DNA of 64,000 nucleotides, taken from a virus (Duplodnaviria; Caudoviricetes). A model generated the notes under the pieces. The model had not been told where the DNA came from and ran no database searches. It saw only the letters and a program-made list of their open reading frames with translations. Positions 1-52,827 of this stretch are shown here, piece by piece; within the stretch, counting starts at the first letter, position 1, and each line of letters begins with the position of its first letter. A program made the position numbers and the translations under genes. The stretch covers positions 1 through 64,000 of the IMG/VR virus record IMGVR_UViG_3300049137_000091; one strand, given 5' to 3'.

Positions 1-47
1 CATGGTCTTCCTTCTTCCTTGGTCTGCCGGGCCGGTACCCCGTCCCG

Positions 48-65
48 ATGGATTAATTAAACCAT
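48..65 (-). promoter_or_regulatory. 18-bp AT-rich operator/-10 box (ATGGTTTAATTAATCCAT on minus strand)
   Basis: Matches consensus ATGRTTTAAYYAAWYCAT; TTGCGC lies 18 nt upstream of TTTAAT on the minus strand. Confidence 0.8.
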
Positions 66-417: not shown

Positions 418-798
418 TCAGCGGTGCACGACCGGCTTGGACAGGTCGCGGTGCACGACGTCGGCCGGGATGAGCCGGTCACGAAGGGCGTCGCGCACCG
501 CCTCGGCGACGGTGGCCGCCCGGTGCCGCCCGCCGGCGCAGCCGATGGCGAGGACGAACGGCTTGTCCCCGGCCGGGCCGTCCGTAAAGGCGGAGACGGC
601 GCGGGCCAGCGAGCGGACCAGGGCGGGAATGCCGGGCGTGCCGAGCACGGCGTCGCGCACGGCCGCGTCCCGGGCGGTCAGGTTCTTCAGCTCGGGGGAG
701 ACGTGCGGGTCCTTGAAGTGGTAGCGCAGGTCGGCGGTCAGGTGCGCCTCGGGCGGGTCGTCGTGCAGGAAGCCGAAGCTGACGATGGTCACGTTCAT
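418..798 (-). CDS. Stand-alone RapZ/YvcJ C-terminal-domain-like protein
   Basis: VSFGF..., D.R...DP and IGCAGGRHR motifs typical of the RapZ C-terminal domain; no P-loop domain. Confidence 0.75.
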   Translation of the reverse strand: MNVTIVSFGFLHDDPPEAHLTADLRYHFKDPHVSPELKNLTARDAAVRDAVLGTPGIPALVRSLARAVSAFTDGPAGDKPFVLAIGCAGGRHRAATVAEAVRDALRDRLIPADVVHRDLSKPVVHR

Positions 799-825
799 AG
801 GTTCCTCGTTCCGTGGTCGAGCACG

Positions 826-843
826 ATGAATTAACTAAACCAT
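826..843 (-). promoter_or_regulatory. 18-bp AT-rich operator/-10 box
   Basis: ATGGTTTAGTTAATTCAT on minus strand, TTGCGC 17 nt upstream, 28 nt before the 798 start. Confidence 0.8.
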
Positions 844-872
844 ACTAGGGATGACAGCGCAACCTCTGGACG

Positions 873-913
873 CGACGAAGCCCCGGCACCCTTCCGGGCC
901 CGGGGCTTCGTCG
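873..913. terminator. GAAGCCCCG-family hairpin
   Basis: CGACGAAGCCCCG...CGGGGCTTCGTCG after the 921 stop. Confidence 0.65.
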
Positions 914-920
914 TTGTCGC

Positions 921-1328
921 TCACCGCTTGCGGCGGTTGACCTTCGCCGCCGCCTTGGCCTTCGCCTCGTCGGCTCGGGCCTGCGCCTCCACCGAGGCCG
1001 TGAACTGCCGGATCACGAACAACGCGACCAGGCCGACCACGACGACCGCCAGCAGCACGGCCGCGACGATCGCTCCGGCGACGGCGAGCACCGCCACGCA
1101 GAGGGTGACGACGATGCAACCGAGCAGCAGGGTGAGCAGCCACGGCACCACCTTCTCCGCGACGGTCTTCTCGGTGGCCGCCGGCGCCGGGGCGGGGGCC
1201 GGCGCCGGGTAGTGGTGATGCACGTGCAGGTGGACCCCGTCCGGTCCGGCGACGGTGCCCGCCGACGGATTGGCCTTCAGGTACTCGACCATCTCGGCCG
1301 GGACCGGGGCGTGACGCCTTTCCAGCAT
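921..1328 (-). CDS. Membrane protein, Spd-like (spread protein candidate)
   Basis: Pro/Ala linker, long hydrophobic stretch, basic Ala/Lys tail; lies in the TraB cluster; start uncertain (1328 or 1352). Confidence 0.6.
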   Translation of the reverse strand: MLERRHAPVPAEMVEYLKANPSAGTVAGPDGVHLHVHHHYPAPAPAPAPAATEKTVAEKVVPWLLTLLLGCIVVTLCVAVLAVAGAIVAAVLLAVVVVGLVALFVIRQFTASVEAQARADEAKAKAAAKVNRRKR

Positions 1329-1433
1329 CCCTTCCATGGTTCCTTCTTCCATCGTCCGGCCCGCAGGCCGTCACCCCGAATATACCTCAATCATCAACGG
1401 TTGAACCGTCGTTGCAGGTCAGACGTTGGAACG

Positions 1434-1476
1434 CGACGAAACCCCGGGCCGTCGTGCGGCGCCGGGGCTTCGGTCG
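1434..1476. terminator. GAAGCCCCG-family hairpin
   Basis: CGACGAAACCCCG...CGGGGCTTCGGTCG after the 1490 stop. Confidence 0.55.
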
Positions 1477-1489
1477 GGACGGTGCGGGG

Positions 1490-1684
1490 TCAGACGCCCT
1501 GCGGGACCAGGCGCACCTGATGCTGGAACGTTCGCAGGGCGTCACCCCGGTTGCGGGTGGGCCCGGTGATGCGCGCACCCTGCCGCACCCGGTACCAGGT
1601 GCCCGGCGTGCCCTGGGTCCCGTGGTCGTCGGAGGCGACGTCCAGGGCAACTCCGGAACGGAGAATTTCCGTGGTCCAGTTCAT
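1490..1684 (-). CDS. Hypothetical protein (64 aa)
   Basis: GGAGGG SD, own AT-box upstream and hairpin downstream. Confidence 0.6.
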   Translation of the reverse strand: MNWTTEILRSGVALDVASDDHGTQGTPGTWYRVRQGARITGPTRNRGDALRTFQHQVRLVPQGV

Positions 1685-1721
1685 CAGGTTCCCTCCAGGG
1701 TTCAGGCGCCGGGTTCCCCGA

Positions 1722-1739
1722 CTGATTTAATTAAATCAT
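1722..1739 (-). promoter_or_regulatory. 18-bp AT-rich operator/-10 box
   Basis: ATGATTTAATTAAATCAG on minus strand, TTGCGC 17 nt upstream. Confidence 0.8.
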
Positions 1740-1768
1740 GTTCGGGTCGCCGGCGCAACTCCGTGGGG

Positions 1769-2158
1769 TCAGTACGTGAACGTGTAGGTCACGCCGTCGG
1801 CCGTCTTCGTCTTGGCCAGCTCGCGGTCGTCCACCCGGGCGTCCAGCCACCGGTAGAGCCACGGCCGGGACCGGCCCGTAGCCGTCATGATCTCCTTGAA
1901 GTCGGACGCGGTGACCTGCTTCACCCCCTTCCGCCGCAGGGCGACCAGGTGCTGGTAGGTCACGTCGTTCGCCTCCTCCGTGCTCATCTTGGACTCGGGG
2001 GCGGGCAGTTCGATCACGGTGGCGCCGCCGCGCACCCCGGCGAAGATGAACCCCAGCGCCTCCTCGGCGACCGCGAGTCCGCACCGCCCGCACAGCGGGA
2101 CGGTCTTCGTGTGGACCGCTGAGGCGCCGCAGCCTGCGCAGTTCATTTCCTTGGTCAT
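1769..2158 (-). CDS. Zn-finger plus winged-helix protein resembling the TraB C-terminal wHTH
   Basis: CAGC..CGRC N-terminus; TGRSRPWLYRWLD aligns with TGRPRGWVYDELE of the adjacent TraB. Confidence 0.7.
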   Translation of the reverse strand: MTKEMNCAGCGASAVHTKTVPLCGRCGLAVAEEALGFIFAGVRGGATVIELPAPESKMSTEEANDVTYQHLVALRRKGVKQVTASDFKEIMTATGRSRPWLYRWLDARVDDRELAKTKTADGVTYTFTY

Positions 2159-2405
2159 CTGTCAGCCTTCCTCGTGTCTGCGTTCACCGTCCGGCCGACC
2201 GGGCCGGGCGGAAGAGAGATCCAAGACCGGAGAGTTCCGGCCCTCGTCAGGGGCCCTGTCCGGGCCTGTAATCGACCGTGCCCCGAGACAGCCAGCGGCT
2301 GTCTGCGGACGCGTCAGAAGCGCCACCAGGCCCCGTCAGATACGCGTCAGGGCGGGCTCCCTGACATGGGATGCCCGCCCTGACCTGGCGCTAACCTCCT
2401 GGGGC

Positions 2406-4391
2406 TCACACGGCCGCAGCCTCCGCGAGGACGCTGCGGGCGATGCCGTACACGGCCGTCTGGTTGGGCGGGCTGAGCCGGTCCAGCACGTCCATTTCCA
2501 CCAGGCGCTCCAGCTCGTCGTACACCCAGCCGCGCGGGCGCCCGGTCAGGTCCGGCAGGTCGGCCACAGCGTCGAAGGTCATCTGCGTCTCGCCGCTGCT
2601 GGCCAGCACGTTGATGCGGTTCAGGATCTCCGCGCGGGCCTGGTCGTCGGTCATCCGGTCGAAGTTGACCGGCTCGCACAGGGTGATCGGCTCGGACACC
2701 CGGGGTGCGGCCAGCGGAGCTGCGGCGTCGAACTCCTCGCCGTCCACGTTCACGACGAACGGGTCCAACGGCTCTTGACCTGCGAAGTCCTGCTCCACCT
2801 CGTCCACCTCCGGGGCGGTCTCCTCGTCCACGACCCCGGCCGCCAGGATGCGGTAGGAGCCCTCGTCCAGCTCGGCCCAGTGCGGCCGGGTCGCCTCGAT
2901 CATCGCCGTCCGGTCGGCGCGCTTCACGCGCGGCGCCCGGCCGTCGATGGGCCACAGTTCCTTCGGCGTGCCGGTCAGCTCGGCGTACAGGCTGCCCGGC
3001 GCGTCGTTGGCCCACTTGGTCGGGTCGGCCCCGGCCTCCAGCGTGGGCGCCTCCAGCGCGTACTTGGCGTCCTGGTACTCCTTCTGCCCGTGGGCGAGGC
3101 TCTGGGCGAACTGACCTCGGGTTTTGCGGGAGATGTTGTCGTGCGGCATGGTCTGCATCGACGCGCAGAAGTGCACGCCGACGCTGCGCAGCTTGCGCAG
3201 CGCCTCGTCGGCCTCCTCGTCCACGTAGGGCAGGACGTCGGCGGCCTCCTCGATGTCCAGGAAGATGGCCGGGATGCCGTGCATGTCGTACAGCTCGGGC
3301 ACCCACTGCTTGTAGCCCTTGCCGCCGTCCGCCCTGGTCAGCTTGCCGAAGAGGCCGGCACGGTACTCCACGAGGGGCACCAGGTTCTTCACCAGGCGCT
3401 CCGTGGTGTCCCGGTCCTTGGCGGCCAGGCCCAGCACCTCCTCGATATCGCCGAAGCTCTGCTGGAACTTCGCCGGATCGCCGACGACGGGGACGACGTC
3501 GCGGCGCTCGCGCATCTGGAGGATCGCCATGCAGATCGTGTCCGTCTTGCCCGCTCCGGACATGCCCGTGCACTTCGTGTGGGCCAGCGGCCTGGGGTTT
3601 TCGTCGTCCTCGGACCCGACGATCCACCACTCCATGGGGCTCCCGTCCACGCGGTTGCCCAGCCAGATCGGGGCGTCCGCGATGGAAGCCCCCAGGTGAC
3701 GCGGACCCGTCCACACGGACGGCTTGACGTCCCCGGCCGGCCGCATGAACTGGACGTCAACCTGGGACTCGTCGCCCGGCACCTTCAGCACCTTGACCTG
3801 CGAGGCGTCCACGCCGGCGACGGCCGCGATCTGCTCCTGCGCCGCCTGCGCCTCCTTCGCCGTGGTCGGGGCGTCCAGGTGGACGCGGGCCGTCAGCGTG
3901 CTGTCCGTCTCCTTCACGGCGCCGACCTTGGCGTCCTTGAACGCCCTGATCTTCTCCATGAAGGAGCCGTCACCCTCCTTGACCTGCGACTTGTCCACGT
4001 CACGCACCCCGGACAGGGCGGCGTGCCGCAGGTTCCAGCCGATGGACAGCGCCATGCCGCCGAGGGCCCACGCCTTGACGACGTCGGCCTGCCACGGCTC
4101 CAGCGACGCGGCGATGATGACCCAGGTCAGCGCGGCCGTGACGAACCCGGTGGCCATGACGCGGGTTTCCTGGCGACGCACCGACCAGGTCTTCCACGTG
4201 ATGTAGCTCAGGTAGGCGGAGGCCGCTCCGAGCATGGCCATCCACAGCCCGTCGTCACCGGCGACGACGTGCACCACCAGGGCCACCGGCCAGGCAGCCA
4301 AGGTGAGCAGCCAGGGGAGAAAGTAGCTGGTCAGACGCTCGGGCATGTTGAAGATGCCGAGGAATCCGACGCGGGTCGTTGCCTTGCTCAT
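2406..4391 (-). CDS. traB: TraB-family FtsK/SpoIIIE-type DNA translocase (Streptomyces conjugation protein)
   Basis: N-terminal TM segments, Walker A GMSGAGKT, Walker B-like IFLDIEEA, MQT motif, C-terminal wHTH (GRPRGWVYDELERL). Confidence 0.8.
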   Translation of the reverse strand: MSKATTRVGFLGIFNMPERLTSYFLPWLLTLAAWPVALVVHVVAGDDGLWMAMLGAASAYLSYITWKTWSVRRQETRVMATGFVTAALTWVIIAASLEPWQADVVKAWALGGMALSIGWNLRHAALSGVRDVDKSQVKEGDGSFMEKIRAFKDAKVGAVKETDSTLTARVHLDAPTTAKEAQAAQEQIAAVAGVDASQVKVLKVPGDESQVDVQFMRPAGDVKPSVWTGPRHLGASIADAPIWLGNRVDGSPMEWWIVGSEDDENPRPLAHTKCTGMSGAGKTDTICMAILQMRERRDVVPVVGDPAKFQQSFGDIEEVLGLAAKDRDTTERLVKNLVPLVEYRAGLFGKLTRADGGKGYKQWVPELYDMHGIPAIFLDIEEAADVLPYVDEEADEALRKLRSVGVHFCASMQTMPHDNISRKTRGQFAQSLAHGQKEYQDAKYALEAPTLEAGADPTKWANDAPGSLYAELTGTPKELWPIDGRAPRVKRADRTAMIEATRPHWAELDEGSYRILAAGVVDEETAPEVDEVEQDFAGQEPLDPFVVNVDGEEFDAAAPLAAPRVSEPITLCEPVNFDRMTDDQARAEILNRINVLASSGETQMTFDAVADLPDLTGRPRGWVYDELERLVEMDVLDRLSPPNQTAVYGIARSVLAEAAAV

Positions 4392-4406
4392 GGCCTGTCA
4401 CCTCCC

Positions 4407-4982
4407 CTAGACGACGGTGAAGCCGCCGCGACGGCCCCCGGGTCGGTTGCTCTTGGTCCCGTCGTTCTCCAGCTCGTCCAGGAAGATCTCGAACCGGCGC
4501 CACGCCTTCACGGACTCGGCGGCGCCGGCGGCGCAGTTGTTGGCCAGCGCCGACAGGTTGCGGCCGATCATCCCGAGCGTGGCGGCCATCTTGGCGGCCT
4601 GCATGGGGTTGAGCCGGCCGGTGCTGGCCTGCCGGGCCTGCGCGCGGGCGGCAGCCTTGAGCTGGCCCTGGGCCATGTGCGCGGACACGGCCAGGTAGTT
4701 GAGCAGGGCGCGGTAGCCCTCGCAGAAGGCGTGCAGGTCGTCCTGGTTGGACAGCTCCATCGAGCCGATGGACTGGACGAGCTGGGAGAGGTTCTGGCCG
4801 CGCGTCCCGCCCGGCCGGTGGACGCGCTGGCTCTGACCTGCGGGCTTGCCGGTCGCGTACTGGTCGGGGTGCCCGTGGGCGTCCAGCCCCCGGCTGCGCA
4901 GCTCTTCCGCGCTGGCCCCCTTGACGCGGCCGGACGCGGTGGCGCTCTCGGGCGGGCCGAAGGGGTTCTTGGTCTCGTTCAT
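4407..4982 (-). CDS. TraA-like plasmid transfer protein
   Basis: Directly upstream of traB; LSNQDDLHAFCE and helical Ala-rich C-terminus resemble the TraA proteins of Streptomyces plasmids. Confidence 0.55.
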   Translation of the reverse strand: MNETKNPFGPPESATASGRVKGASAEELRSRGLDAHGHPDQYATGKPAGQSQRVHRPGGTRGQNLSQLVQSIGSMELSNQDDLHAFCEGYRALLNYLAVSAHMAQGQLKAAARAQARQASTGRLNPMQAAKMAATLGMIGRNLSALANNCAAGAAESVKAWRRFEIFLDELENDGTKSNRPGGRRGGFTVV

Positions 4983-5061
4983 TCCTGATTCCTCGTCTCT
5001 GGTCCGGGGTTCCTTCAGTCAAGCGACGTGGTCCCCGCCGGGATGATGCCCAGCGGGGACC

Positions 5062-5079
5062 ACGGTTTAACTTAATCAT
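5062..5079 (-). promoter_or_regulatory. 18-bp AT-rich operator box upstream of traA-traB
   Basis: ATGATTAAGTTAAACCGT on minus strand. Confidence 0.7.
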
Positions 5080-5094
5080 GTCACACTCAGCGGC

Positions 5095-6009
5095 CTACGA
5101 GAAGGCGCGGTTCACGGTCTTCCGCAGGGTGTCCGTGTTGACAGCCTCGTAGCCCGGCAGGGTCGGGACGATCGCCTTGATCTCGTCCTTGGTGTGCTGC
5201 ATGTCCCGCAGCCACCGGACGACGTCCGGCAGCTTCTTCTCCAGGACGTCCGCCGGGACATCCGGAGTTGTCCCGGCCCCGGAAGCGGAAGGCGCCGGCT
5301 TGGTGGTCTTCTTCAGCGAGACGTTGACCGTGGACCGCTTCGGGACATCTGCCGGGACAACGGCCTTGTCCCGGGCGGGACGCTTCGTCTCGGCGGCCGG
5401 GACAACCGGGGCCGGGACAACCGGCTGCGGGACATCGACGGCCGGGACAACCGGCTGCGGGACATCGACGGCCGGGACAACCAGGGCCGGGACAACCGGG
5501 GCCGGGACAACCGGGGCCGGGACATCGACGGCCGGCCCGTTGTCCCGGGACAGGCCGACGGTCGCCGGGGACATCGCGGCCTGACGCTTACGAACGCTGA
5601 TCAGCACCTGGTGCATGAGGGCGCCGAACGCGATCAGCGCGGCCGACGGCGGTACGGCGGCCACGATGTAGTCCAGGACCGGGGCCTTCTCGCCGACGCC
5701 GGCCACGTTCAGACCGATGGACCCGGCGGAGCCGACGATGGTCAGGCCGATACCCCACTTGTTGGACTGCCCGCGCAGACCTGACACGAACGTCAGCAGC
5801 TCGCCAGCGATGATGAACAGGTCCAACGTCGCAGGCCAGGCCCACGAACGGGCCGGTGACTCCTCCAGACCGTGCTCGCGGGCGACGTCAGCGAGGTGGG
5901 TGTAGGACAGCCAGAAGGCGATGGCGGTCAGGACGATGATGACGAAGCCGGCGGCCACCAGCGCGGTGAACGCCGCGCGCTCGGCCGGGTCGTCGTAGCT
6001 CTTGGACAT
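5095..6009 (-). CDS. DUF2637-like membrane protein with VPA repeat linker and short C-terminal helical domain
   Basis: AFWLSYTHL...AWPATLD and AAVPP motifs, four TM segments; ATG 6009 has SD and ACCAAGGAA. Confidence 0.75.
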   Translation of the reverse strand: MSKSYDDPAERAAFTALVAAGFVIIVLTAIAFWLSYTHLADVAREHGLEESPARSWAWPATLDLFIIAGELLTFVSGLRGQSNKWGIGLTIVGSAGSIGLNVAGVGEKAPVLDYIVAAVPPSAALIAFGALMHQVLISVRKRQAAMSPATVGLSRDNGPAVDVPAPVVPAPVVPALVVPAVDVPQPVVPAVDVPQPVVPAPVVPAAETKRPARDKAVVPADVPKRSTVNVSLKKTTKPAPSASGAGTTPDVPADVLEKKLPDVVRWLRDMQHTKDEIKAIVPTLPGYEAVNTDTLRKTVNRAFS

Positions 6010-6047
6010 GATCGATTCCTCGGTTCCTTGGTCGGTGCTTTCCTCGG

Positions 6048-6065
6048 TCGATTTACTTAAATCAT
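6048..6065 (-). promoter_or_regulatory. 18-bp AT-rich operator box
   Basis: ATGATTTAAGTAAATCGA on minus strand, upstream of the DUF2637 gene and abutting the array. Confidence 0.7.
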
Positions 6066-6320
6066 AGTACCCGGACATGTCCCGGGACAACCCCGCGCCG
6101 GGACACGCGTTGTCCCGGGACATCCGGCTGAGCGGGACAACGCGCCGGCGGGACATGTCCCGGGGCTATCCGCTGCGGGACACGGCTTGTCCCGGGACAA
6201 CAGGGCACCGGGACATCTCGGCAGCGGGACAGCCCGTGTCCCGGGACAACCTTCTGCGGGACACCGGACACGACGAAGCCCCGGGACACGATCTGTCCCG
6301 GGGCTGTTGTCCCGCCGCGC

Positions 6321-6569
6321 TCAGGTGTCCCGTTGTCCCGTTGTCCCGGGGACATCAAGCGGAATTGCCATCTCGCTGTAGTGGAAGCTGACGATCTCGA
6401 TGTCCCCCACCGGGACACCCTCATCCCGGGACAAGTCCCGGACGACGACCGCGCGCAGCCGTTCCTCGCTGCACGGGGCCGGGGACACCGCTGTCCCCTC
6501 CAGTGTCCGGGGCTGTCCCCGCAGGATCACTGACGCGCCATAGACGTATCCGTGCTGTGTCCCGGTCAC
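6321..6569 (-). CDS. Hypothetical protein (82 aa) overlapping the repeat array
   Basis: GTG start overlaps the TGA of the 6566-7009 ORF (GTGA coupling). Confidence 0.45.
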   Translation of the reverse strand: MTGTQHGYVYGASVILRGQPRTLEGTAVSPAPCSEERLRAVVVRDLSRDEGVPVGDIEIVSFHYSEMAIPLDVPGTTGQRDT

Positions 6570-7009
6570 CGCATGAGTCCGGGGTCCCCGGCGAACTGCC
6601 ACGCGGGGCGACCGTCCCGGGACGTCCGGGACAGAGCCCCGACGCTCGCCAGGAAGTTGAGGCGGTCGGACACCCACGACATCGGCAGGCCGATGTCCCG
6701 GGCGATGTCGGCGAAGTCGTCCAGGACGACGACGTCACGCCCGGACCGGGCCAGCGTGGCCAGCCTGCGCTCCATGGACCGGGGCAGGCCGTCGGCCCGG
6801 TGCTCCTGCGCTCGCGCCTCCTCATCCTCGGCACCGGCGTAGATCCCGTCCCAGGCGATCCTGCGCAGCTCGCCGGCGGCGAAGGCGAGCCGCGACTGCT
6901 CGTGCCGGGGCACGGACCGCAGGATCTCCCGGGCCCGTGCCGGGTCGTCGGCGAGCACGGCGCGCAGGGCGTCGGCCGCCGCCTCGGTGGTTGCGTCAGT
7001 GGTTTTCAT
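6566..7009 (-). CDS. Hypothetical protein, possible C-terminal winged helix
   Basis: GAGGAG SD; FADIARDIGLPMSWVSDRLNFL helix-turn-helix-like segment. Confidence 0.6.
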   Translation of the reverse strand: MKTTDATTEAAADALRAVLADDPARAREILRSVPRHEQSRLAFAAGELRRIAWDGIYAGAEDEEARAQEHRADGLPRSMERRLATLARSGRDVVVLDDFADIARDIGLPMSWVSDRLNFLASVGALSRTSRDGRPAWQFAGDPGLMR

Positions 7010-7034: not shown

Positions 7035-7667
7035 TCAGGCGGGCCGGCCGGCGGTGCGCGGCCCGTCCCGGTGCCAGATCCACGTGCGGGCGTCCAGGTG
7101 CTCGAAGACGGCCCCGGCGTCCAGCAAGCGGATCAGGTAGTCCTCGTCTTCGCCACGGTATCGGCGCCCGATCCCCTCCGTGTCCACCTCGTACCCGGCG
7201 CGGAATCCGCCGACGGCGCGCACGGCCGCCGTCCGCACCACGTGAGTCATCGGGATGAACGACGCGGCCCGGCGGATGTGCGCTGCCTGTTCCGGCCCGA
7301 ACCGAACGCCCCACGGGGAGCGCCAGACGCCTTGAACGGACACGGCGGTCGGGTCGGTGCCGCGCACCACCGGCGCCGGGTAGACCAGGTCGGGCCGCTC
7401 CGGCGATTGCTCCATCACGCGCATGCACGCGCGCAGGTGATTGGGCTTCAGCTCGTCGTCGTCGTCCAGCCAGGCGACGACGTCGGCGGTGACCCGGGCC
7501 AGCGCGCGGTTGCGGGCCTCCCAGGCGCCGGTGCGCAGGGAGTCGCGTTCCACGACGACCTGGTCCGGCTTGCGGGTCTGCGCGCGCACCGAGGCCAGCG
7601 CGCGGGCCAGTTCGGCCTCGCGGCCGGGGATGGTCGGTACGACGACGGCGACGCTCAGGCGGGGCAT
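7035..7667 (-). CDS. GT-A fold (family 2-like) glycosyltransferase
   Basis: VVVPT, ARNRAL, WLDDDD (DxD) and GEDEDY motifs. Confidence 0.85.
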   Translation of the reverse strand: MPRLSVAVVVPTIPGREAELARALASVRAQTRKPDQVVVERDSLRTGAWEARNRALARVTADVVAWLDDDDELKPNHLRACMRVMEQSPERPDLVYPAPVVRGTDPTAVSVQGVWRSPWGVRFGPEQAAHIRRAASFIPMTHVVRTAAVRAVGGFRAGYEVDTEGIGRRYRGEDEDYLIRLLDAGAVFEHLDARTWIWHRDGPRTAGRPA

Positions 7668-19268: not shown

Positions 19269-19317
19269 CTCAGCACCAGACCACGGAACGCACCATGACC
19301 AAGGAAGCAGGAACGAA

Positions 19318-26909: not shown

Positions 26910-26973
26910 CCGGAATGATCATGATGCGATCCGGTCTTAACATCGCCGCACCCGAGACATGGAGGGTGCGGCG

Positions 26974-31110: not shown

Positions 31111-33165
<2,055 letters not shown>

Positions 33166-34642: not shown

Positions 34643-36016
34643 ATGAGGGTGGACCCGAGGTTGCGAAGCCGGGCGGCGGACGCGCTGCTCATGCACGCAC
34701 GCACGCTGACGGAGCCGCGCTGGACCCCGCTGCCCCACCAGGTCCCGCCGGAAGGCAACTGGTACGGGTGGCTGCTGATGGCCGGCCGTGGCGCCGGCAA
34801 GACGGACGCTTGCGCCCGCTACATCCACGAGCACGTGATGGGCCCGCCGTGCATCCCCGGGCCCGTGCCCCACTGGATCGGCATTGTCGCCCCCACCCTC
34901 GGCGACGCGGCGACGTCCTGCTACGCCGGCCCGTCCGGGCTCCGGGTGCACAGCCCGGAGGCGAAGATGACGACCGCGCAGGGCGGCACGGTCATCCGCT
35001 GGCCCAACGGGTCCGAAGCCAAGATATTTGGGGCACATTCACCCGAAGATGTTGAAAGGCTCCGATCTGGGGGCAATCGTTGCGCCGTATGGATGGAGGA
35101 ATTGGCCGCCTGGCGGCACCTGGACGACACCTGGGACCAGATCCGTTTCGGCCTGCGCGCCGGGCCCCGCCCGCACTGGGTCGCCTCCACCACGCCCAAG
35201 CCCCGCGCGCTGATCAAGAAACTCATGTCGGGCGGCGTGGCCAACGTCGCCGTCACCCGGGCCACCACCTACGACAACCCGCACCTGCCCGCCGACATCC
35301 GCGAGGCGCTGGAAGACGCCTACGGCGGGACGCAGATCGGCCGCCAGGAGCTGTACGCCGAGGTCATCGACCAGGACGAGAACGCGCTGTGGACGCGGTC
35401 CATGCTGGACGCCGGCCGCATCCGCCCGGTGGACCTGCCGTCCCTGGCGAAGAAGACCGTGGGCGTGGACCCGTCCGGCGGCCGGGGCGAACAGGGGATC
35501 GTCGTCGTCGGCAAGGCGCTTCAGGAGCACATCCGCAACGTCAACGGCCGGGACGTCGCCCGCAACCTCGCGCACGGCTACGTTCTCGCCGACCGGACCT
35601 GCCACCTTTCCCCGGACGGCTGGGGGCGCCGCGCGGTGCAGGCGGCCGTGGACCACGAGGCGGACGACATCTGCGTGGAGGTCAACTTCGGCGGGGAAAT
35701 GGCCGTCAACACGATCCGCGCGGCGGCCGACGCGATGGGCGTCAGCATCCCCATCAAGATCGTGCGGGCCACGCGCGGGAAGAAGGTGCGCGCCGAGCCC
35801 GTATCGGCGCTGACCGAGCAGGGCCGGTGGCACATGGCCGGCGCCTTCGAGGAGCTGGAAGATCAGCTTTGCACCTGGTACGAGGATCTGGACTGGTCGC
35901 CGGACCGACTGGACGCGATGGTCTGGCCGGCGTGGCACCAGCGCATCGTGAAGGCGACGATGACCGGCACGACCACGTCCGGCGGCATGTCCACGGTGAG
36001 CCGGTCCATCGGTTGA
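34643..36016 (+). CDS. terL: Terminase large subunit
   Basis: MAGRGAGKT, WMEELA, STTPK, GRQELYAE, GVDPS, SPDRLDA. Confidence 0.9.
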   Translation: MRVDPRLRSRAADALLMHARTLTEPRWTPLPHQVPPEGNWYGWLLMAGRGAGKTDACARYIHEHVMGPPCIPGPVPHWIGIVAPTLGDAATSCYAGPSGLRVHSPEAKMTTAQGGTVIRWPNGSEAKIFGAHSPEDVERLRSGGNRCAVWMEELAAWRHLDDTWDQIRFGLRAGPRPHWVASTTPKPRALIKKLMSGGVANVAVTRATTYDNPHLPADIREALEDAYGGTQIGRQELYAEVIDQDENALWTRSMLDAGRIRPVDLPSLAKKTVGVDPSGGRGEQGIVVVGKALQEHIRNVNGRDVARNLAHGYVLADRTCHLSPDGWGRRAVQAAVDHEADDICVEVNFGGEMAVNTIRAAADAMGVSIPIKIVRATRGKKVRAEPVSALTEQGRWHMAGAFEELEDQLCTWYEDLDWSPDRLDAMVWPAWHQRIVKATMTGTTTSGGMSTVSRSIG

Positions 36017-40693: not shown

Positions 40694-41311
40694 ATGCCGC
40701 TTATCGGGCTGGTCCGCGTTTCTACGGACAAACAGAACACCCAGCGACAACACGATGCGCTCGGGCCAATCTGCCTGAAGGTATTCGAGGAAAAGATCAG
40801 CGGCAAGCTGAAGGTGGAAGACCGGCCCGGCCTGTCGGCCGCGCTCGACTACCTGCGCGACGGCGACATGCTCTGCGTGCACGAAGTGGACCGGCTCGGA
40901 CGCAACCTGCTGGAAGGGCTGATCGTCCTCAACGAGCTCTTCGAGCGCGGCGTCCCGGTCAAGGTGCTGGAGGGCATTGCCGCCGGCGAGCACCGCGAGC
41001 GGTCGCTGATCCTCGACCTGGCGCTGGCGCTGGCGGAGGACCGGCGCCGGGACATCGTGCGCAAGACCCGCAGCGGCCTGGACGCGGCGCGCAAGCGCGG
41101 CCGGGTCGGCGGCCGGCGCCCGGTCATGTCGGAGGCCCTGGTGGTGCAGGCGATTGCCCTGCGGGCCGCCGGGATGACGCTGCGGCAGATCCGGCCGCAC
41201 CTGGTCTACAAGACGGCAAGCGGTCAGTCCCGGAACCCGTCGCTGGGCGCCATCTCCCAGGCGCTCCAGGCGTACGACGCCGCCGCGCAGGAGCTGGCGG
41301 AGGCGCGCTGA
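40694..41311 (+). CDS. Small serine recombinase (resolvase/invertase)
   Basis: RVSTDKQ, RPGL, VDRLGRN, GRVGGRRP; 205 aa with no large-integrase domains. Confidence 0.9.
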   Translation: MPLIGLVRVSTDKQNTQRQHDALGPICLKVFEEKISGKLKVEDRPGLSAALDYLRDGDMLCVHEVDRLGRNLLEGLIVLNELFERGVPVKVLEGIAAGEHRERSLILDLALALAEDRRRDIVRKTRSGLDAARKRGRVGGRRPVMSEALVVQAIALRAAGMTLRQIRPHLVYKTASGQSRNPSLGAISQALQAYDAAAQELAEAR

Positions 41312-44251: not shown

Positions 44252-44737
44252 ATGAGCCGCTTCGAGTTCGGACAGCGCTACCGCGACGCCGACGGGGACA
44301 CATACATCGTGGCTGAAATCCTCGGCACCGGCCGCCACGCCCGTCTGCTGGGGGACTTCGACATCCTCGCTCACCCGGGCGCCTTCGAGCTGGACCTGGT
44401 TACGACCGAGCATCTGCGCGACCTGGTCCGTGTCGGGGACGACCCTCAGATGACGGAAATCTTGCGTGCCCGCATGGCGGACGAGACGGACCGGGCGAAG
44501 GCGTGGGGCAAGGTGCCGTCCAACGAGGTCCGGACCGTCTACAACGCAGCTCACGACGCGCGGATGAGCGAGCGGGACGTCTGCGCCGGGCGGGATGCAG
44601 ACGGCATGCTCGCCGGCATCCGCGACCGCGCGCTGCGGAAGATCGCCAATATCGTCGGTGACGTGGACGACGCTGCCGTCATCACCGGGTTCCCCCGGGA
44701 GGACATCGAGCGGGCCGTCACCCGGGCAGCGTCCTGA
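44252..44737 (+). CDS. Hypothetical protein
   Basis: Box and ACCAAGGAA upstream. Confidence 0.6.
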   Translation: MSRFEFGQRYRDADGDTYIVAEILGTGRHARLLGDFDILAHPGAFELDLVTTEHLRDLVRVGDDPQMTEILRARMADETDRAKAWGKVPSNEVRTVYNAAHDARMSERDVCAGRDADGMLAGIRDRALRKIANIVGDVDDAAVITGFPREDIERAVTRAAS

Positions 44738-45140
44738 CCCGGCGCCGGCCGGAGGGGTGGGACTCCGTGGCCACGGAGCCTGGCTGATCCACCCGTCCGG
44801 CCGGCGCCGTCCACCGCAGCGATGTGCCGCCGCCCCATCCGGGCCCTGCAACACCCGGCACGCCCCCGTCACGTGCGGAGGCGCGTTCATGTGTACCGCG
44901 CATCTGTCGTCGGACCAACCGGGCCCGGAACGAGTAGGTGCGAACGGCGTTCCCCTGTACGGTTCCCCCGCACGCGATCTCCTCGGGTTGTGGGCAGCGA
45001 GAGGTGCGGTCCCGCCCGGCGGCTGGCGGGGCCGCACCTTTGTGTCTGCACCTGTCCGTCAGGGGCGTTCCTCGTCAAAGCGGTCAATCGGGAGATCGCG
45101 GCTACCATGCCGCCCCGACGATCCGACCCGGGGAGGCCGC

Positions 45141-46994
45141 ATGCCGTGGTACGACGCGTTCCGGGGCCGAACGCCCCGGCCGCCCGAGACCGCAACGACC
45201 TTCGGACCTGCGCCGGTGCCCGAGGCGCTGACGGCCGCCGCGTCCGAACCGCGCGGCCCCGAGACCAAGTTCTTGCGCCGCACCGAGTCCTGGCAGGAGG
45301 AGGTGTGGCGGTACCACGAGACGCTGGGCGAGTTCAACTACGGCGTGTGGTGGCTGGCCAACATGCTCTCCCGGGTCCGGCTGCGGGCGGCCCGGCTCAC
45401 CCCCGACTCCGACGAGCCGGAGATCGTGCGCACCGGCACGGCCGCCGAGCTGATGATGCGCCTCGGTGGCGGTGTCGCCGGTCAGGCTCAGCTCATGCGC
45501 CGGCTGACCGTGCAGCTCTCCCTGCCCGGCGAGGGCTACCTGGTGGGGGAGACGGAGGGGAAGACCGAGCGCTGGCAGGTGCGGTCGGTGGACGAGATCC
45601 GCGTCCAGTCGAACCGCTACGAGGTGATGGACGAAGAGAGCGTCACCACCGGGCAGGAATGGCGCCCCCTTGCCGCCGACCACCTTGTGGTCCGCGTCTG
45701 GCGCCCGCACGATCGCTTCTACCACCTGGCCGACTCGCCGGCCCGGTCCGCCCGCGAGGTGATGCGCGAGCTGGAGTTGGTCAACCGGAAGATCACGTCC
45801 GAGTATCTGTCGCGTCTGGCCAGTGCGGGCATGGTCGCAATCCCGGACGAGATCAGCTTCCCGGTGCGCGAGGAGTTTGCCGACGAGCCCAACCCGTTCA
45901 TGGCCGAGTGGATCGAGATTGCCGCGACGGCGATCCAGAACCCGGGCACCGCGTCGGCCGTCGTGCCGATCCCGCTGGTGGGCCCGGCCGAGGCCATCGA
46001 TAAGATCCGCATGATCGACTTCACGCTGAAGACGGATGAGAAGACGATCGAGAAGCGGGACAGCGCAATCAAGCGCCTGGCCACCAAGCTCGACATGCCC
46101 GCCGAGGTGCTGCTGGGCATGGGTGACGTCAACCACTGGGGGCAGTGGCAGCTCGAAGAGTCCGGGCTGAAAACGCACATCGCGCCGGTGGCCGAGCTGA
46201 TCTGCGACGCCCTGACGCGCGGCTACCTCCAGCCCCGGCTGGAAGCCTCCGGCGAGGACCCGGACGCGTGGGTCGTCTGGTACGACATGTCCGAGCTGGC
46301 GCTGCGCCCGGACCGTTCCGGCAACGCCGTCCTGGCCTACGACCGCATGGAGTTGAGCAGCGAGTCCTTCCGCCGGGAGATGGGCTTCAACGAGTCCGAC
46401 GCACCCACCGACGACGAGCTGCGCAACCTCGCGCTGAAGACCATCATCCGCACGCTGCCGTCCGGCGCCGCGTCCGCGCTGTCCCAGCTCATCGGGGAGG
46501 ACGTCCCGCAGATCGTGCCGGTGTCCCCGCAGGACCCGGGCACCGCCGAGGCCGTGCAGCAGGGCGACACCCCGCCGCCGGCCGGGCAGACGCCGGAAGG
46601 CGACGCCCCGGCCGGGCCGTCCCCGGCGCCGGACAGCGGGGCACGGCCCACCTCGCAGGAGTCCGGGCCGCCCGGCGAGGCGGCGGCCGACCGGGCCCGC
46701 CGCGTCGTCGCGCAGGCCCGCACACAGCACATGATCCGGTTCTCGGCTGCTGGCAGGTGGGAGCTGCTGCACCCCGGCGTCTGCGAGGAGCACGAGTACT
46801 CCTGCCCGTACACGCATGCCGTCGCCACGGCGGCGCCGTCGGTCCGGCCGGGCACATCCGGAACGTACCTGTGCCACCTGGACCCGTACGGCCGTCTGAT
46901 GCTGGACGGCCGCAGCCCCTACGCCGACACGTCCACGATGATCACCACGTCTCTGCTGCCGGGGGTGAGCGGCCGTGGCACCGACACCGTCTGA
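45141..46994 (+). CDS. Portal protein with C-terminal Pro-rich and Cys/His extension
   Basis: GGAGG SD; QLSLPGEGYL, VRVWRPH, LDMPAEVLLG, NHW.QW; first gene of the head module. Confidence 0.8.
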   Translation: MPWYDAFRGRTPRPPETATTFGPAPVPEALTAAASEPRGPETKFLRRTESWQEEVWRYHETLGEFNYGVWWLANMLSRVRLRAARLTPDSDEPEIVRTGTAAELMMRLGGGVAGQAQLMRRLTVQLSLPGEGYLVGETEGKTERWQVRSVDEIRVQSNRYEVMDEESVTTGQEWRPLAADHLVVRVWRPHDRFYHLADSPARSAREVMRELELVNRKITSEYLSRLASAGMVAIPDEISFPVREEFADEPNPFMAEWIEIAATAIQNPGTASAVVPIPLVGPAEAIDKIRMIDFTLKTDEKTIEKRDSAIKRLATKLDMPAEVLLGMGDVNHWGQWQLEESGLKTHIAPVAELICDALTRGYLQPRLEASGEDPDAWVVWYDMSELALRPDRSGNAVLAYDRMELSSESFRREMGFNESDAPTDDELRNLALKTIIRTLPSGAASALSQLIGEDVPQIVPVSPQDPGTAEAVQQGDTPPPAGQTPEGDAPAGPSPAPDSGARPTSQESGPPGEAAADRARRVVAQARTQHMIRFSAAGRWELLHPGVCEEHEYSCPYTHAVATAAPSVRPGTSGTYLCHLDPYGRLMLDGRSPYADTSTMITTSLLPGVSGRGTDTV

Positions 46995-50933: not shown

Positions 50934-51042
50934 ACTGGGACAACGGGCGGATCGTCAAGGGTCGTTCGACTTTTTGGCGATCCGCCCGTTTGCGCTTACT
51001 CTGCGCGCCGTCCTGATCAGACCATTTCCCGGGAGGTCCGCA

Positions 51043-52827
51043 GTGCCGGAGCCCGAGCTGTTCACCGCACCCGACGACCTCTCGCTGGTCCCTGAGGGCG
51101 AGCTGGCCGAACTGGAGGCGGGCGCGGTCGCCGAATTCGACCGCATCGCCAGTCTGTCCGAGCTGACGCCGGAGCACATCGCCTACTCTCAGCGGCTCAC
51201 CGGCGACCTGGACCGCATCCGCGCCGAGCTGCGCGTGCGCGCCGTCCGGGCGCAGGAGCAGGCCACCACCGCGCAGGCCGAGCGCGCCCGCCAGATGTCG
51301 CTGCTGCGCCAGTCGGTGCACGGCGGTGAGACCGCCACGACCGGGGAGGGCGAGGGCGGCACGCCCGCTCCGGTCGTGGCCGGCGGGGTCAACCTGACCG
51401 CGCTCACCGAGGCCACGGCCAAGGGAGTCGTCGCCGCCCTGTACGGCGACCAGGCGCCGCAGGACGTGCAGCGCCGCGTCGCCTCGCTGTCGCAGGTGCG
51501 CGAGCGCGCCCCGCAGCCGAAGATCCCGTCCGCCACCAACGCGGTCACCGCGTCCGTGGACATCCCGGGCGTGGCCGCCGGGCAGACCCTGCCCACCATG
51601 GAGGCGCTGAGCGAGGCGTTCCGCGCCAAGGCCAAGGCCGTGCCGACCACGCACTATGGCAGCCAGGGCGCCCCGCGCCACCTGGTCGCCTCGGTGCGCA
51701 ACCGGTTCGACCACACCGTGGACGACCGCACGTCGGCGTCCACCGTGGAGGAGCTGTGGCACTCGATGACGCAGGAGGGCGGCAAGGCCGACGCCCTGCT
51801 CGCCGGCGGCGGCTGGTGCGCGCCGTCGCAGACCACGTACGACTTCTTCAACATCGCCGACGCCCCGGTGGGTCTCATCGACCTGCCTACCGTCGGCGTC
51901 TCGCGGGGCGGCATCCGCTACCCGGTCAGCCCGTCGATCGGCGAGGTGTTCTTCACCGATGCCGGCTCCAACCCGGCCACCGGGTTCGGCGGGTTCGCGG
52001 CGGCGTTCTCCAACGCCTCCGACCCGTGGCTGTGGACCGAGGCCGACGACATCGCCACCGTCACCGGCTCGGTCAACAAGCCGACCCTGCGGGTGCCGTG
52101 CCCGACCTTCGCCGAGGAGCGGCTGGAGGCGTACGGCATCTCGCTCACGGCGGGCAACCTGACCGACGACGCCTACCCGGAGTCCACGCAGAACTTCATC
52201 CAGCTTCTGCGGGCCGCGTACGCGCACGTCATCAACGCCCGGCTGATCAGCCTCATGGTGGCCCGGTCCACCAGCGCGATCACCTTCGGCGGCAACGTCC
52301 CGGCCACGCAGACGCTGCTGGACGGCGCCGAGCTGGCCGCCATCGACTACCGCGCCAAGTACGGCATGCGCGAGGACGCGGTGCTGGAGATCATCTTCCC
52401 GCGCTGGGTGCTCGCCGTCATCCGGGCCGACCTGGCCTGGAGGACGTCGGTGGAGCGCGAGAGCGTCAGCGATGCGCAGATCACCGCGTGGTTCACCGAC
52501 CGGGGCCTGCGTCCGCAGTTCGTCTCCGACTGGCAGGTGCGCGGCGCCAACCAGTTCGGCCGCCAGTCCGCGAACCTCACCGCGTGGCCGACGTCGGCCG
52601 ACTTCCTGCTCTACGCGGCCGGCACCTTCCTGCACGGCAACGGCCTCCAGCTCGACCTGGGCGTCACCCGCGACAGCCAGCTCAACGCCGAGAACGACCA
52701 CAGCGCGCTGTGGGCGGAGGAGGCGCACCTGGTCGCCAAGGTCGGCCACGAGTCCCGGCTGTACCGGGCGTCCTTCCAGGTCAACGGTGCGGGCACGGCG
52801 GGCATCGCTCACGCCGCGCAGATTTGA
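51043..52827 (+). CDS. Major capsid protein with N-terminal scaffold-like region
   Basis: GGGAGG SD before GTG; GGWCAPSQTTYDF, RGGIRYP, C..F.E.RL. Confidence 0.8.
   Translation: MPEPELFTAPDDLSLVPEGELAELEAGAVAEFDRIASLSELTPEHIAYSQRLTGDLDRIRAELRVRAVRAQEQATTAQAERARQMSLLRQSVHGGETATTGEGEGGTPAPVVAGGVNLTALTEATAKGVVAALYGDQAPQDVQRRVASLSQVRERAPQPKIPSATNAVTASVDIPGVAAGQTLPTMEALSEAFRAKAKAVPTTHYGSQGAPRHLVASVRNRFDHTVDDRTSASTVEELWHSMTQEGGKADALLAGGGWCAPSQTTYDFFNIADAPVGLIDLPTVGVSRGGIRYPVSPSIGEVFFTDAGSNPATGFGGFAAAFSNASDPWLWTEADDIATVTGSVNKPTLRVPCPTFAEERLEAYGISLTAGNLTDDAYPESTQNFIQLLRAAYAHVINARLISLMVARSTSAITFGGNVPATQTLLDGAELAAIDYRAKYGMREDAVLEIIFPRWVLAVIRADLAWRTSVERESVSDAQITAWFTDRGLRPQFVSDWQVRGANQFGRQSANLTAWPTSADFLLYAAGTFLHGNGLQLDLGVTRDSQLNAENDHSALWAEEAHLVAKVGHESRLYRASFQVNGAGTAGIAHAAQI

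Follow-up and report, generated by a model that had tools for sequence, protein, structure and literature searches.

Organization of the transfer region

The DNA analyzed here (the window, 64 kb) is the first part of an 89.5-kb phage genome whose relatives are of Streptomyces origin. Its G+C content is 70.8% and is even throughout. The initial annotation had raised the circularity of the replicon; the ends of the record are contiguous, so that the genome joins end to end, and we regard the window as part of a complete, circularly closing tailed Streptomyces phage genome of ~89.5 kb. The virion genes of the window include those for terminase, portal and major capsid proteins (Table 1), with the capsid protein showing ~32% identity to its counterparts in Gordonia phages and 78% to that of the related element pS1D4-14.2. 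Other genes of the element are of conflict type, encoding a MuF-ADP-ribosyltransferase and a ParB-methylase.

A transfer module of the pSN22/pCQ3 type lies within positions 418-7009, on the minus strand. In order of transcription it encodes a four-transmembrane (TM) DUF2637 protein, a TraA-like protein, TraB, a free TraB-type winged-helix protein and a small membrane protein. This order, with a repeat array embedded in the gene for the TM protein followed by traA and traB, is identical to that of the pCQ3 tra region. The flanking genes are phage replication genes, encoding an exonuclease-like protein, a helicase and a primase-polymerase, in agreement with the earlier description of the tra genes as contiguous with phage early genes.

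Table 1. Features of the transfer region and selected phage genes, with positions in the window.
Feature	Position	Strand	Basis or detail
RapZ C-terminal-domain protein (126 aa)	418..798	-	PF22740 E 3e-25; phrog_18111 E 9e-43
AT-box promoter upstream of RapZ-C gene	826..843	-	TTGCGC 17 nt upstream
Small membrane protein (143 aa)	921..1352	-	hydropathy scan
AT-box promoter downstream of winged-helix gene 1	1722..1739	-	motif match
Free TraB-type winged-helix protein 1, Cys-rich N-terminus (129 aa)	1769..2158	-	NF041214
TraB, predicted membrane-anchored FtsK-type dsDNA translocase, C-terminal winged helix (661 aa)	2406..4391	-	NF041214
TraA-like protein (191 aa)	4407..4982	-	pSN22 TraA similarity; NF041213
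AT-box promoter upstream of traA-traB	5065..5079	-	motif match
DUF2637 membrane protein (304 aa)	5095..6009	-	PF10935 E 2.7e-13; phrog_733 E 1e-20
Repeat array 1	5200..5570	.	18 GGGACA cores, mostly 15-bp tandem units
Repeat array 2	6040..6700	.	~32 GGGACA cores, consensus CCGGGACAWC, both orientations
Free TraB-type winged-helix protein 2 (147 aa)	6566..7009	-	NF041214 positions 571-631, E 2e-7
Terminase large subunit	34643..36016	+	Terminase_6N + Terminase_6C; phrog_2
Small serine recombinase (resolvase)	40694..41311	+	PF00239 E 5e-28
Portal protein	44595..46994	+	phrog_776 E 1.5e-124
Major capsid protein	50974..52827	+	phrog_777 E 3.8e-116

TraB matched the NCBIfam plasmid_TraB profile (NF041214) over positions 4-634 of 639 with an E value of 1.6e-89, at a score of 301 bits that falls under the NCBIfam equivalog cut-off of 800 bits; a Pfam search with TraB gave no match. 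TraB of pSN22 (NC_001425), only 24% identical, aligns with the phage protein from end to end (pairwise E 1e-28), including the membrane helices and the C-terminal winged helix. The Walker A (GMSGAGKT) and Walker B (FLDIEE) motifs line up in this alignment and both are intact in the phage TraB, and the catalytic residues K282 and E382 are invariant across 89 TraB homologues. An AF2 model of TraB (pLDDT 89) found FtsK motors as its best Foldseek matches (E 1.8e-14), predicting an FtsK-motor fold. Together with the gene order of pCQ3, these results bear out the initial reading of a TraB-type conjugation module, which is of the true TraA-TraB type.

The TraA-like protein shares 28% identity over 93 aa with pSN22 TraA (pairwise E 4e-5) and matches NF041213 at an E value of 0.0014. 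Its gene lies 15 nt upstream of traB, the same spacing as in the traA-traB-spd cluster of pSN22, and its counterpart in a relative with 48% TraB identity carries the Pfam domain TraA-like (PF28214). The DUF2637 assignment, also proposed initially, was recovered by profile search (Table 1). The true start of this gene is probably at 6009 rather than 6156, with a ACCAAGGAA leader at 6024-6032. A TM scan predicted four TM helices, and the protein further has a linker of (P/V)-rich repeats and a C-terminal domain of small size; a 304-aa protein encoded upstream of pCQ3 traA has the same architecture and position. This architecture and a weak match to pSN22 suggest an SpdB2-like protein. DUF2637 proteins are plentiful on Streptomyces chromosomes.

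Two free winged-helix proteins resemble the C-terminus of TraB. The first is a paralogue of the TraB C-terminal winged helix, matching NF041214 at positions 557-627 (E 6e-8) and the C-terminus of pSN22 TraB (pairwise E 2e-5). It is 59-66% identical in 5 of 7 relatives and 31-32% identical in the other two, L014 and pS1D4-14.2; a ACCAAGGAA motif adjoins the start of its gene. The second, which we also count with the module, adjoins array 2 and is weakly conserved in relatives. The small membrane protein has a linker of PA repeats and ~57 aa of hydrophobic sequence; two or three TM segments are predicted. All 8 relatives compared encode it, at 42-57% identity.

Each of the genes named in the initial annotation between 418 and 6635 is present, on the minus strand, but two details did not hold. 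The gene labelled Spd-like is probably that of the small membrane protein, which gave no match in family searches and no demonstrable homology to a named Spd protein, and is Spd-like in style only. The RapZ-C gene is missing from relatives L006 and pS1D4-14.2, and we therefore consider it accessory and outside the module.

Promoters, leaders and repeat arrays

The ACCAAGGAA motif occurs 18 times in the window (0.09 expected), at sites including 15, 393, 2147 and 6024. The AT-box RTTTAAYYAAWTCAT has 22 matches in the window against 0.02 expected, among them 48, 826, 1722, 5065 and 6051, and 27 AT-rich boxes were counted in the whole genome. The tra genes thus share the AT-box promoters and motif of the rest of the element, as had been proposed, and the presence of these promoters and leaders within the module supports the further proposal that the transfer genes belong to the phage's own regulon. 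No GntR/TraR-type regulator was found in the phage genome, and no repressor was identified there.

About 50 repeats of the CCGGGACA type adjoin the tra genes, just upstream of traA. Array 1 lies inside the linker-coding part of the DUF2637 gene, and array 2 occupies apparently non-coding DNA between that gene and the upstream winged-helix gene. The motif CGGGACA is concentrated here, with 44 of its 63 window sites in 5200-6700 (21 expected for the whole window); the same 1.6 kb holds 50 of the 113 GGGACA cores of the genome. Array 2 overlaps a promoter-like site at the AT-box 6051-6065, the -35 element of which falls inside a repeat.

When the phage element and 21 related viral contigs were scanned, the densest 7-mer array lay 1-2.6 kb upstream of traB in 20 of the 22 loci. 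The relatives carry arrays at the same place but with other motifs, and no such array was seen downstream of traB in the phage element or its close relatives. This departs from a canonical clt: in pSN22 the clt-type repeats are six direct copies of CCGCACA immediately 3' of traB, whereas the phage repeats number ~50, run in both directions and stand upstream of traA. Both pSN22 and pCQ3 do, however, have similar arrays in or next to an Spd-like membrane gene, that of pSN22 being a dense 7-mer array inside the gene. We infer a role of the repeats in transfer, array 2 being a candidate for the site that acts in cis. Among relatives whose arrays use CGGGACA, CGAAAGC or GCGAGAG, the recognition helix of TraB hardly changes; since the helix does not follow the repeat motif, TraB is perhaps not the reader of the repeats, and the arrays may be read by another protein.

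Conservation of the module and maintenance of the element

Twenty-two related viral contigs, 29-99 kb long and mostly 75-99 kb, have the module at the same position, with TraB identities of 38-69%; synteny as a whole extends over TraB identities of 38-70%. In every relative examined the module is placed between conserved phage genes. No integrase, tRNA or att-like boundary is present. Because phage AT-box promoters and ACCAAGGAA leaders lie inside it and its position is conserved in relatives, we conclude, as the initial annotation did, that the cluster is native to the phage and not an inserted integrative element (AICE). It is a conserved core part of the leftward early-gene arm.

The initial observation of a small resolvase and no integrase is likewise correct: no tyrosine integrase (PF00589) was found in the whole 89-kb genome, and the serine recombinase of Table 1, a candidate multimer resolvase, is its sole recombinase. 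A ParA operon (ParA E 1.2e-43, with an overlapping downstream gene) lies outside the window, 68 kb from the repeat arrays. This ParA recurs at 75-78% identity in pS1D4-14.2 and the element of isolate NPDC017936. It is absent from at least one complete relative, which suggests that maintenance functions vary.

At least 4 cultured isolates hold relatives in the form of whole, circular contigs or of a deposited plasmid. One relative was deposited as a plasmid, the contig in NPDC017936 closes as a circle, its ends overlapping by 95 bp, and the ends of an IMG/VR relative overlap by 127 bp; no relative lies on a contig longer than 107 kb. These observations agree with the plasmid lifestyle proposed at the outset, and the phage is most likely kept as an extrachromosomal prophage, that is, as a phage-plasmid.

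Comparison with known elements

The plasmid-phage pZL12 (phage ZL12, GQ919031), cited initially as a precedent for a dual lifestyle, is a ~90-kb Streptomyces element that is tailed phage and plasmid at once and has both ParA and a tra locus; its conjugal transfer has been shown (Zhong et al. 2010). It is a conceptual precedent for dual mobility, although the two backbones are not related: of 108 ORFs, only 6 match at E 1e-5. The pZL12 tra protein (pZL12.71c) is of the generic FtsK/SpoIIIE kind; it reaches 22 bits against the TraB profile and lacks pairwise similarity to the phage TraB. pZL12 also has an integrase/recombinase and ParB, whereas the 89.5-kb phage lacks an integrase. Plasmid pCQ3 (Streptomyces sp. 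W9, NC_013449), circular and 85.5 kb in length, carries traR-traA-traB together with a phage head-tail cluster; we found no description of it as a phage in the literature. Its TraA and TraB are so named by NCBI, and its TraB meets equivalog naming but is only 27% identical to the phage TraB. Unlike the phage, it has a GntR (TraR-type) regulator, and its phage backbone is different and pZL12-like, with matches only in TraB, TerL and the tape measure protein. Both precedents thus sit on a backbone unrelated to that of the 89.5-kb phage, which belongs to a separate, widespread lineage relative to pZL12, the case already known.

P1-type phage-plasmids offer a parallel: their prophages are extrachromosomal, partition genes are present, a site-specific recombinase resolves multimers, and in P1 many dispersed operator-like boxes overlap promoters. 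They share no homology with the phage and lack conjugation genes. AICEs such as pSAM2 and SLP1 resemble the phage in TraB-type dsDNA transfer and DUF2637 proteins, but differ in carrying an integrase and att sites and in lacking virion genes; the phage has neither of the former and a full set of the latter. pSN22 itself is 11 kb long, replicates by the rolling-circle mode and has a TraR repressor. The mechanistic model is pSVH1. Of its genes only traB is indispensable for transfer, and clt regions contain repeats of 8 bp. The pSVH1 TraB forms a hexameric FtsK-like pump whose C-terminus reads clt, and SpdB2 is a four-TM pore-forming protein required for intramycelial spread (Thoma et al. 2015, PMC4447253). 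An equivalence of the DUF2637 protein with SpdB2 would follow from the similarities noted above.

A model for transfer and its alternatives

We consider it fairly probable that the element is a phage-plasmid with a native TraB dsDNA transfer module, using both a virion route and a contact route. TraB would be expressed from the phage's own AT-box promoters and not through a plasmid-type TraR (GntR) kil-kor circuit, and, by analogy with pSVH1 and pSN22, would form a pore in the membrane where hyphae touch or at septa. The FtsK-like hexamer could then engage the double-stranded phage-plasmid at a cis site and pump dsDNA into neighbouring hyphae or compartments, with the membrane proteins of the module assisting its spread. 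We infer contact-dependent transfer by TraB, and its timing.

Alternatively, the phage may be lytic or in a carrier state rather than a stable plasmid, with TraB and the membrane proteins serving only in infection, to move phage DNA under replication across septa and hyphal contacts; infection would then spread independently of virions through the compartmented mycelium. The tra genes are part of the early-gene arm and have AT-box promoters of the kind that serves the replication genes, a GntR/TraR repressor is absent with no other identified, and one complete relative is missing ParA. Should the AT-boxes be early promoters of the lytic cycle, production of TraB would fall in infection and not in stable lysogeny. 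Nevertheless, this alternative appears unlikely given the ParA operon and resolvase, and the isolates with whole circular or plasmid relatives fit stable carriage better than acute infection.

It is more doubtful that TraB serves vertical inheritance, clearing or pumping the 90-kb plasmid prophage through septa that close in sporulation or vegetative growth, as FtsK, SpoIIIE or SffA would, each spore or compartment thus keeping a copy, with no horizontal transfer. The motor has the predicted FtsK fold, the repeat arrays could serve as loading sites, and the element invests in segregation, since it has partition genes. Yet TraB belongs over its full length to the plasmid TraB family and not to chromosomal FtsK, and is paired with TraA and an SpdB2-like membrane protein as on conjugative plasmids. 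Ordinary large Streptomyces plasmids are not known to require a private FtsK in order to segregate.

Re-purposing of the module for roles in conflict or entry, such as exclusion of competing plasmids or phages or DNA uptake, with the arrays as iterons or a centromere, seems improbable. The arrays do not covary with the TraB helix and overlap a promoter, and conflict-type genes are present, but conjugative pSN22 and pCQ3 have comparable arrays at their membrane genes, pSN22 relies on a Rep protein for replication and has no need of iterons at its array, and ParA is distant from the arrays. That the cluster is a passenger or decaying remnant of a separate AICE or plasmid, landed in or co-assembled with the phage, is largely refuted and highly improbable: AICEs and small plasmids typically carry TraB-type genes and DUF2637 proteins are common on Streptomyces chromosomes, but the genome lacks an integrase, tRNA and GntR, G+C is uniform, phage promoters and leaders lie inside the cluster, its place is constant in the 22 viral contigs and the TraB catalytic residues are invariant.

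Surveys of phage-plasmids have screened for conjugation with CONJscan, that is, for a relaxase and a type IV secretion system (PMC7969092), and would be expected to miss TraB-type systems. If the element is indeed a phage-plasmid with its own TraB module, the phage may travel in virus particles and through contact between hyphae alike.

Genome organization and virion genes

The IMG/VR record is a single contig of 89,468 bp with 70.8% G+C and a CheckV completeness of 100%; the window is its first 64 kb. Gene calling by third-position G+C resolved a minus-strand arm, which occupies 1-17.1 kb and extends over the end of the record to ~76 kb, and a plus-strand arm that begins at ~18.5 kb. A promoter, a ACCAAGGAA leader and a ribosome-binding site at window positions 1-60 precede a leftward gene starting at 89460, and the gene order at this junction is collinear with contiguous DNA in relatives. 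These junction features argue that the ends of the record join and that the genome closes on itself, a point that the initial annotation had proposed to check.

Judged by its virion and packaging hallmark genes, the element is a tailed phage. The full virion and packaging gene set by which a phage-plasmid is recognized was found, comprising TerL, portal, MuF-like head protein, capsid, the SLT-domain protein and a lysis amidase. Identity of the capsid to those of Gordonia and mycobacterial phages is only ~32%. Neither a megablast of 25 kb nor a tblastn search with TraB found a match among 50,697 phage records; given the lack of any match at the DNA level, the lineage has no cultured representative in this phage collection. 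Replication genes include an SF2 helicase, a 1530-aa primase-helicase-polymerase and an exonuclease-like protein. The LAGLIDADG-type insert of the helicase is probably an intein, which explains the spurious "terminase" PHROG matches of this gene.

Positions of predicted features. Coordinates are those of the window, except those marked genome, which lie outside it.
Feature	Coordinates	Strand	Remarks
RapZ-C protein	418-798	-	Pfam-supported; absent from two relatives
Small membrane protein	921-1352	-	Kept in all relatives compared
Free winged-helix protein	1769-2158	-	TraB profile match confined to the C-terminal winged helix, E 6e-8
TraB	2406-4391	-	NCBIfam plasmid_TraB, NF041214
TraA-like protein	4407-4982	-	15 nt upstream of traB
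DUF2637 protein	Probable start 6009	-	Upstream of traA; PF10935, E 2.7e-13
Second free winged-helix protein	6566-7009	-	TraB profile match confined to the C-terminal winged helix, E 2e-7
Glycosyltransferases and nucleotide-sugar epimerase, dispersed	7035-7667; 29640-30722; genome 68046-69125	-; +; +	First is a glycosyltransferase, the best-conserved gene near the module (~80% identity in relatives)
SF2 helicase (ResIII + Helicase_C)	14475-17123	-	LAGLIDADG-type insert in N-terminal half
DUF3854/D5_N primase, D5-type helicase and family A DNA polymerase (PolA)	19075-23667	+	1530 aa, single frame
ParB-like N-terminal domain/DNA methyltransferase fusion	26959-28581	+	540 aa; separate from the ParA operon
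Protein with three HTH units	31111-31923	+	270 aa; sigma-70 region 4, LuxR/GerE, HTH_23, and zinc ribbon
Terminase large subunit (TerL)	34643-36016
Small resolvase	40694-41311		205 aa; only recombinase in the genome
Portal	44595-46994
MuF-like head protein	46975-49074	+	RNA-ligase/2H-like region N-terminal; ADP-ribosyltransferase domain C-terminal (PF03496, E 1.5e-18)
Major capsid protein	50974-52827
SLT-domain protein	57565-60999		1144 aa; probable tape measure
DNA polymerase III beta-clamp homologue	genome 72411-74045	-	~150-aa N-terminal extension; divergent from parA
ParA ATPase	genome 74121-74909		E 1.2e-43
ParA operon	genome 74121-75733		275-aa gene translationally coupled after parA

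A divergent TraB protein

The predicted TraB matches NF041214 essentially over its full length (profile positions 4-634 of 639; E 1.6e-89, 301 bits). In the same search TraB of the Streptomyces plasmid pSN22, an experimentally studied protein, scored 809 bits. The score of 301 bits lies below the curated equivalog cut-off of 800 bits, placing the protein in a distant subfamily for which functional equivalence is not guaranteed by the model. Residues 18-648 align with pSN22 TraB at 24% identity (pairwise E 1e-28), with the Walker A (GMSGAGKT) and Walker B (FLDIEE) motifs in register and the C-termini of the two proteins aligned. A Pfam search gave no match for TraB or the TraA-like protein, and phmmer with TraB alone against the PDB returned nothing useful. 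A profile of 89 homologues matched FtsK motor structures in the PDB (E 6.5e-17), and every one of the 89 sequences has the Walker A lysine K282 and the Walker B glutamate E382.

A single-sequence AlphaFold model was discarded (pLDDT 43), and the final AlphaFold (AF2) model was made from the 89-sequence alignment (pLDDT 89). It predicts four N-terminal membrane helices (residues 18-126), a RecA-type motor and, at the C-terminus, a winged helix, seen as an H-b-H-H-b-b unit at 582-650. FtsK motor domains were the top Foldseek matches to this model (E 1.8e-14, TM 0.66 on target), followed by the conjugation coupling protein TcpA. Both the full-length profile match and the FtsK structures thus bear out the initial assignment of this gene as a TraB of the FtsK type.

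The tblastn match to TraB spans ~2.55-2.66 kb, versus 1.98 kb, in several relatives (L011/L035, which is an element of S. africanus, and the related elements L036, L038 and L041). In these elements the longer span points to either an additional matching segment or an insertion close to traB.

Other proteins of the module

The TraA-like protein aligns with pSN22 TraA at 28% identity over 93 aa (pairwise E 4e-5) and matches NF041213 at E 0.0014 (18.8 bits, where the cut-off is 80). The gap between traA and traB is the same length in pSN22 as in the element. In a more distant relative, whose TraB is 48% identical, the counterpart of this protein matches the Pfam TraA-like family PF28214.

The DUF2637 domain expected from the initial reading was recovered by profile search. 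From its probable start the protein combines four TM helices with a linker of Pro/Val repeats and a small domain at the C-terminus, the same architecture as that reported for SpdB2, homologues of which have been noted on actinophages with a proposed role in spreading phage DNA (Thoma et al., PMC4447253). The pSN22 spd ORF gives a DUF2637 match at E 8e-4, and the pairwise comparison reaches E 0.013; homology to a named Spd protein is only weakly indicated.

The RapZ-C-like gene, which had been counted among the transfer genes, is real; it is missing in two relatives and is therefore treated here as a neighbouring accessory gene. An ORF at 1387-1650 appears to be spurious, since it is Arg/Pro-rich.

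Shared promoters and leaders

AT-box promoters occur 22 times in the window, versus 0.02 expected, and many of them, those that point leftward, are preceded at a distance of 17 nt by TTGCGC, with CCGGGG in front of it. Boxes lie inside the module at 826, 1722, 5065 and 6051; others precede replication genes and further early genes. Genome-wide there are 27 of these AT-rich pseudo-palindromic boxes (ATGRTTTAATYAAWTCAT) in DNA of 71% G+C, distributed over window 48-44224 and genome 71812-89034. They look like a genome-wide promoter/operator set and recall the dispersed C1 operators of P1. The ACCAAGGAA motif, a conserved 5' leader element, has 18 copies in the window versus 0.09 expected, located 0-20 nt before start codons; sites include 15, 2147, 6024, 9337, 24408 and 44233. 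Within and around the module it precedes the DUF2637 gene, the winged-helix gene and two neighbouring genes. In DNA this rich in G+C, a simple scan for terminators and promoters gave no useful information. The protein with three HTH units is a candidate phage transcription regulator of one promoter class.

G+C is uniform across the window. The order glycosyltransferase, small genes, membrane protein, traA, traB, winged helix, membrane protein recurs in relatives, accompanying TraB identities of 59-70% in eight of them and 48% in one more. TraB relatives down to 38% identity were found on 22 IMG/VR viral contigs; these range over 29-99 kb, and most measure 75-99 kb. From its boxes and leaders, its composition and this synteny, we conclude that the module is native to the phage; its boxes and leaders agree with the earlier view that the transfer genes fall under phage regulation. 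Insertion of an AICE, the alternative that the initial annotation named as refuting its view, is largely excluded by the lack of a tRNA and of a tyrosine integrase (PF00589, sought throughout the genome), together with conservation at the same place in relatives; there is also no GntR regulator, and the sole serine recombinase is the resolvase, 36 kb away.

Repeat arrays upstream of traB

The 7-mer CGGGACA occurs 63 times in the window versus 21 expected, and 44 of these copies fall within 5200-6700. For the core GGGACA (consensus CCGGGACAWC), 50 of the 113 genome copies lie in these 1.6 kb. One array consists of 15-bp tandem units within the stretch of the DUF2637 gene that encodes the linker. 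The second occupies ~500 bp of apparently non-coding DNA upstream, has copies in both orientations and overlaps the promoter of the DUF2637 gene. The next densest word in the genome reaches 6-8 copies per 500 bp, versus 24 in the array.

We scanned 22 loci, the present element and 21 related viral contigs, and in 20 of them the densest 7-mer array of the locus lay 1-2.6 kb upstream of traB. The motif varies by element (CGGGACA, CGGACAG, GAGGACA, CGAAAGC, GCGAGAG, GCTCAGC and others), and the TraB recognition helix is nearly identical among relatives whose arrays differ completely. In sets of 8 and of 23 elements, the array motif showed no clear covariation with the recognition helices of TraB and the two free winged-helix proteins. 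In control scans, the plasmid pCQ3 had its array inside a multi-TM gene directly upstream of traA, and pSN22 inside a Spd-like membrane gene. In the conjugative plasmid pSN22 (L004), 14 CGTGAGC copies at 5796-6277 lie within this gene and directly behind it, distinct from the CCGCACA repeats; we know of no described function for this second array.

Immediately after its traB, pSN22 has six direct copies of CCGCACA, the repeat unit reported for clt, the cis-acting transfer site recognized by TraB, of the related plasmid pJV1 (PMC3583192). A search of the element for a small conserved array 3' of traB, the clt position of pSN22, found only generic GC-rich words, and the 50-copy array differs from the pSN22 repeats in position and orientation. 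Their place upstream of traB in most loci, with a changing motif and a constant TraB helix, argues that the arrays are a cis feature of the module that is conserved and evolves fast; as clt they are candidates only.

Probable plasmid lifestyle and comparison with known systems

The initial annotation had seen a small resolvase and no integrase, and this holds for the whole genome. With ParA and its coupled gene, the resolvase and no PF00589, the element has the maintenance genes without an integration module that mark a phage-plasmid; ParA is not universal in the lineage. The closest database relative, pS1D4-14.2, was deposited as a plasmid of Streptomyces sp. S1D4-14 and is syntenic with the element, with identities of 67% for TraB and 78% for both capsid and ParA. 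In isolate NPDC017936 a related element forms a 92,184-bp circular contig with ends overlapping by 95 bp, and an IMG/VR relative has an end overlap of 127 bp. The indications of an extrachromosomal replicon in host cells come from relatives (pS1D4-14.2 and the NPDC017936 contig). Among the 120 TraB clusters listed, none is on a contig >107 kb, and thus chromosomal integration was never seen there.

The 90-kb Streptomyces plasmid-phage pZL12/ΦZL12 is unrelated to the element in backbone and tra protein; 6 of 108 ORFs match pZL12, so that no pZL12-like backbone is shared. In the 85.5-kb plasmid pCQ3, GntR-traA-traB adjoins a phage head-tail cluster. We found no paper on the present lineage, and met pS1D4-14.2 only in a genome announcement. 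A survey of phage-plasmids screened for conjugation by CONJscan, which uses relaxase and T4SS models, with no mention of Streptomyces (PMC7969092). Such models would be expected to overlook the TraB system of actinomycetes, which consists of one protein.

Two possible routes of transfer

Phage-plasmids are usually assumed to travel only as virions. The initial observation of a TraB-type module in a tailed phage is confirmed here, and its interpretation is borne out to the extent that sequence analysis allows. We somewhat favour the view that the element is a phage-plasmid whose TraB-type dsDNA transfer module, native and under phage regulation, would provide a contact route beside the virion route. 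TraB might instead be used only for virion-free spread during infection, or have a role in segregation. A further alternative is that the module has been re-purposed for conflict or for entry, in which case the arrays would be iterons or a centromere.

Beyond the favoured two-route view, a more specific and rather doubtful proposal is that TraB and its membrane partners are an infection tool. After infection or induction in one compartment, the dsDNA genome would be pumped via septa and hyphal contacts into adjoining compartments and mycelia without virions, and the free winged-helix paralogues and arrays would act as a packaging/export switch. If true, a bacterial virus would be spreading directly from cell to cell.

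The divergent TraB subfamily, with its free-standing copies of the DNA-reading domain, should be useful for the study of TraB substrate choice. Cultivable strains, for which Streptomyces sp. S1D4-14 and S. africanus NRRL B-24243 are candidates, would allow the two routes to be compared directly in cost and benefit, together with the idea of virion-free mycelial spread. In this Streptomyces phage lineage, which comprises 22 IMG/VR contigs, dozens of metagenomic clusters and several cultured isolates, TraA-TraB is retained as a core, phage-regulated component. The lineage arose independently of pZL12, the one studied case, suggesting that dual mobility, by particle and by hyphal contact, recurs as a strategy in mycelial hosts.
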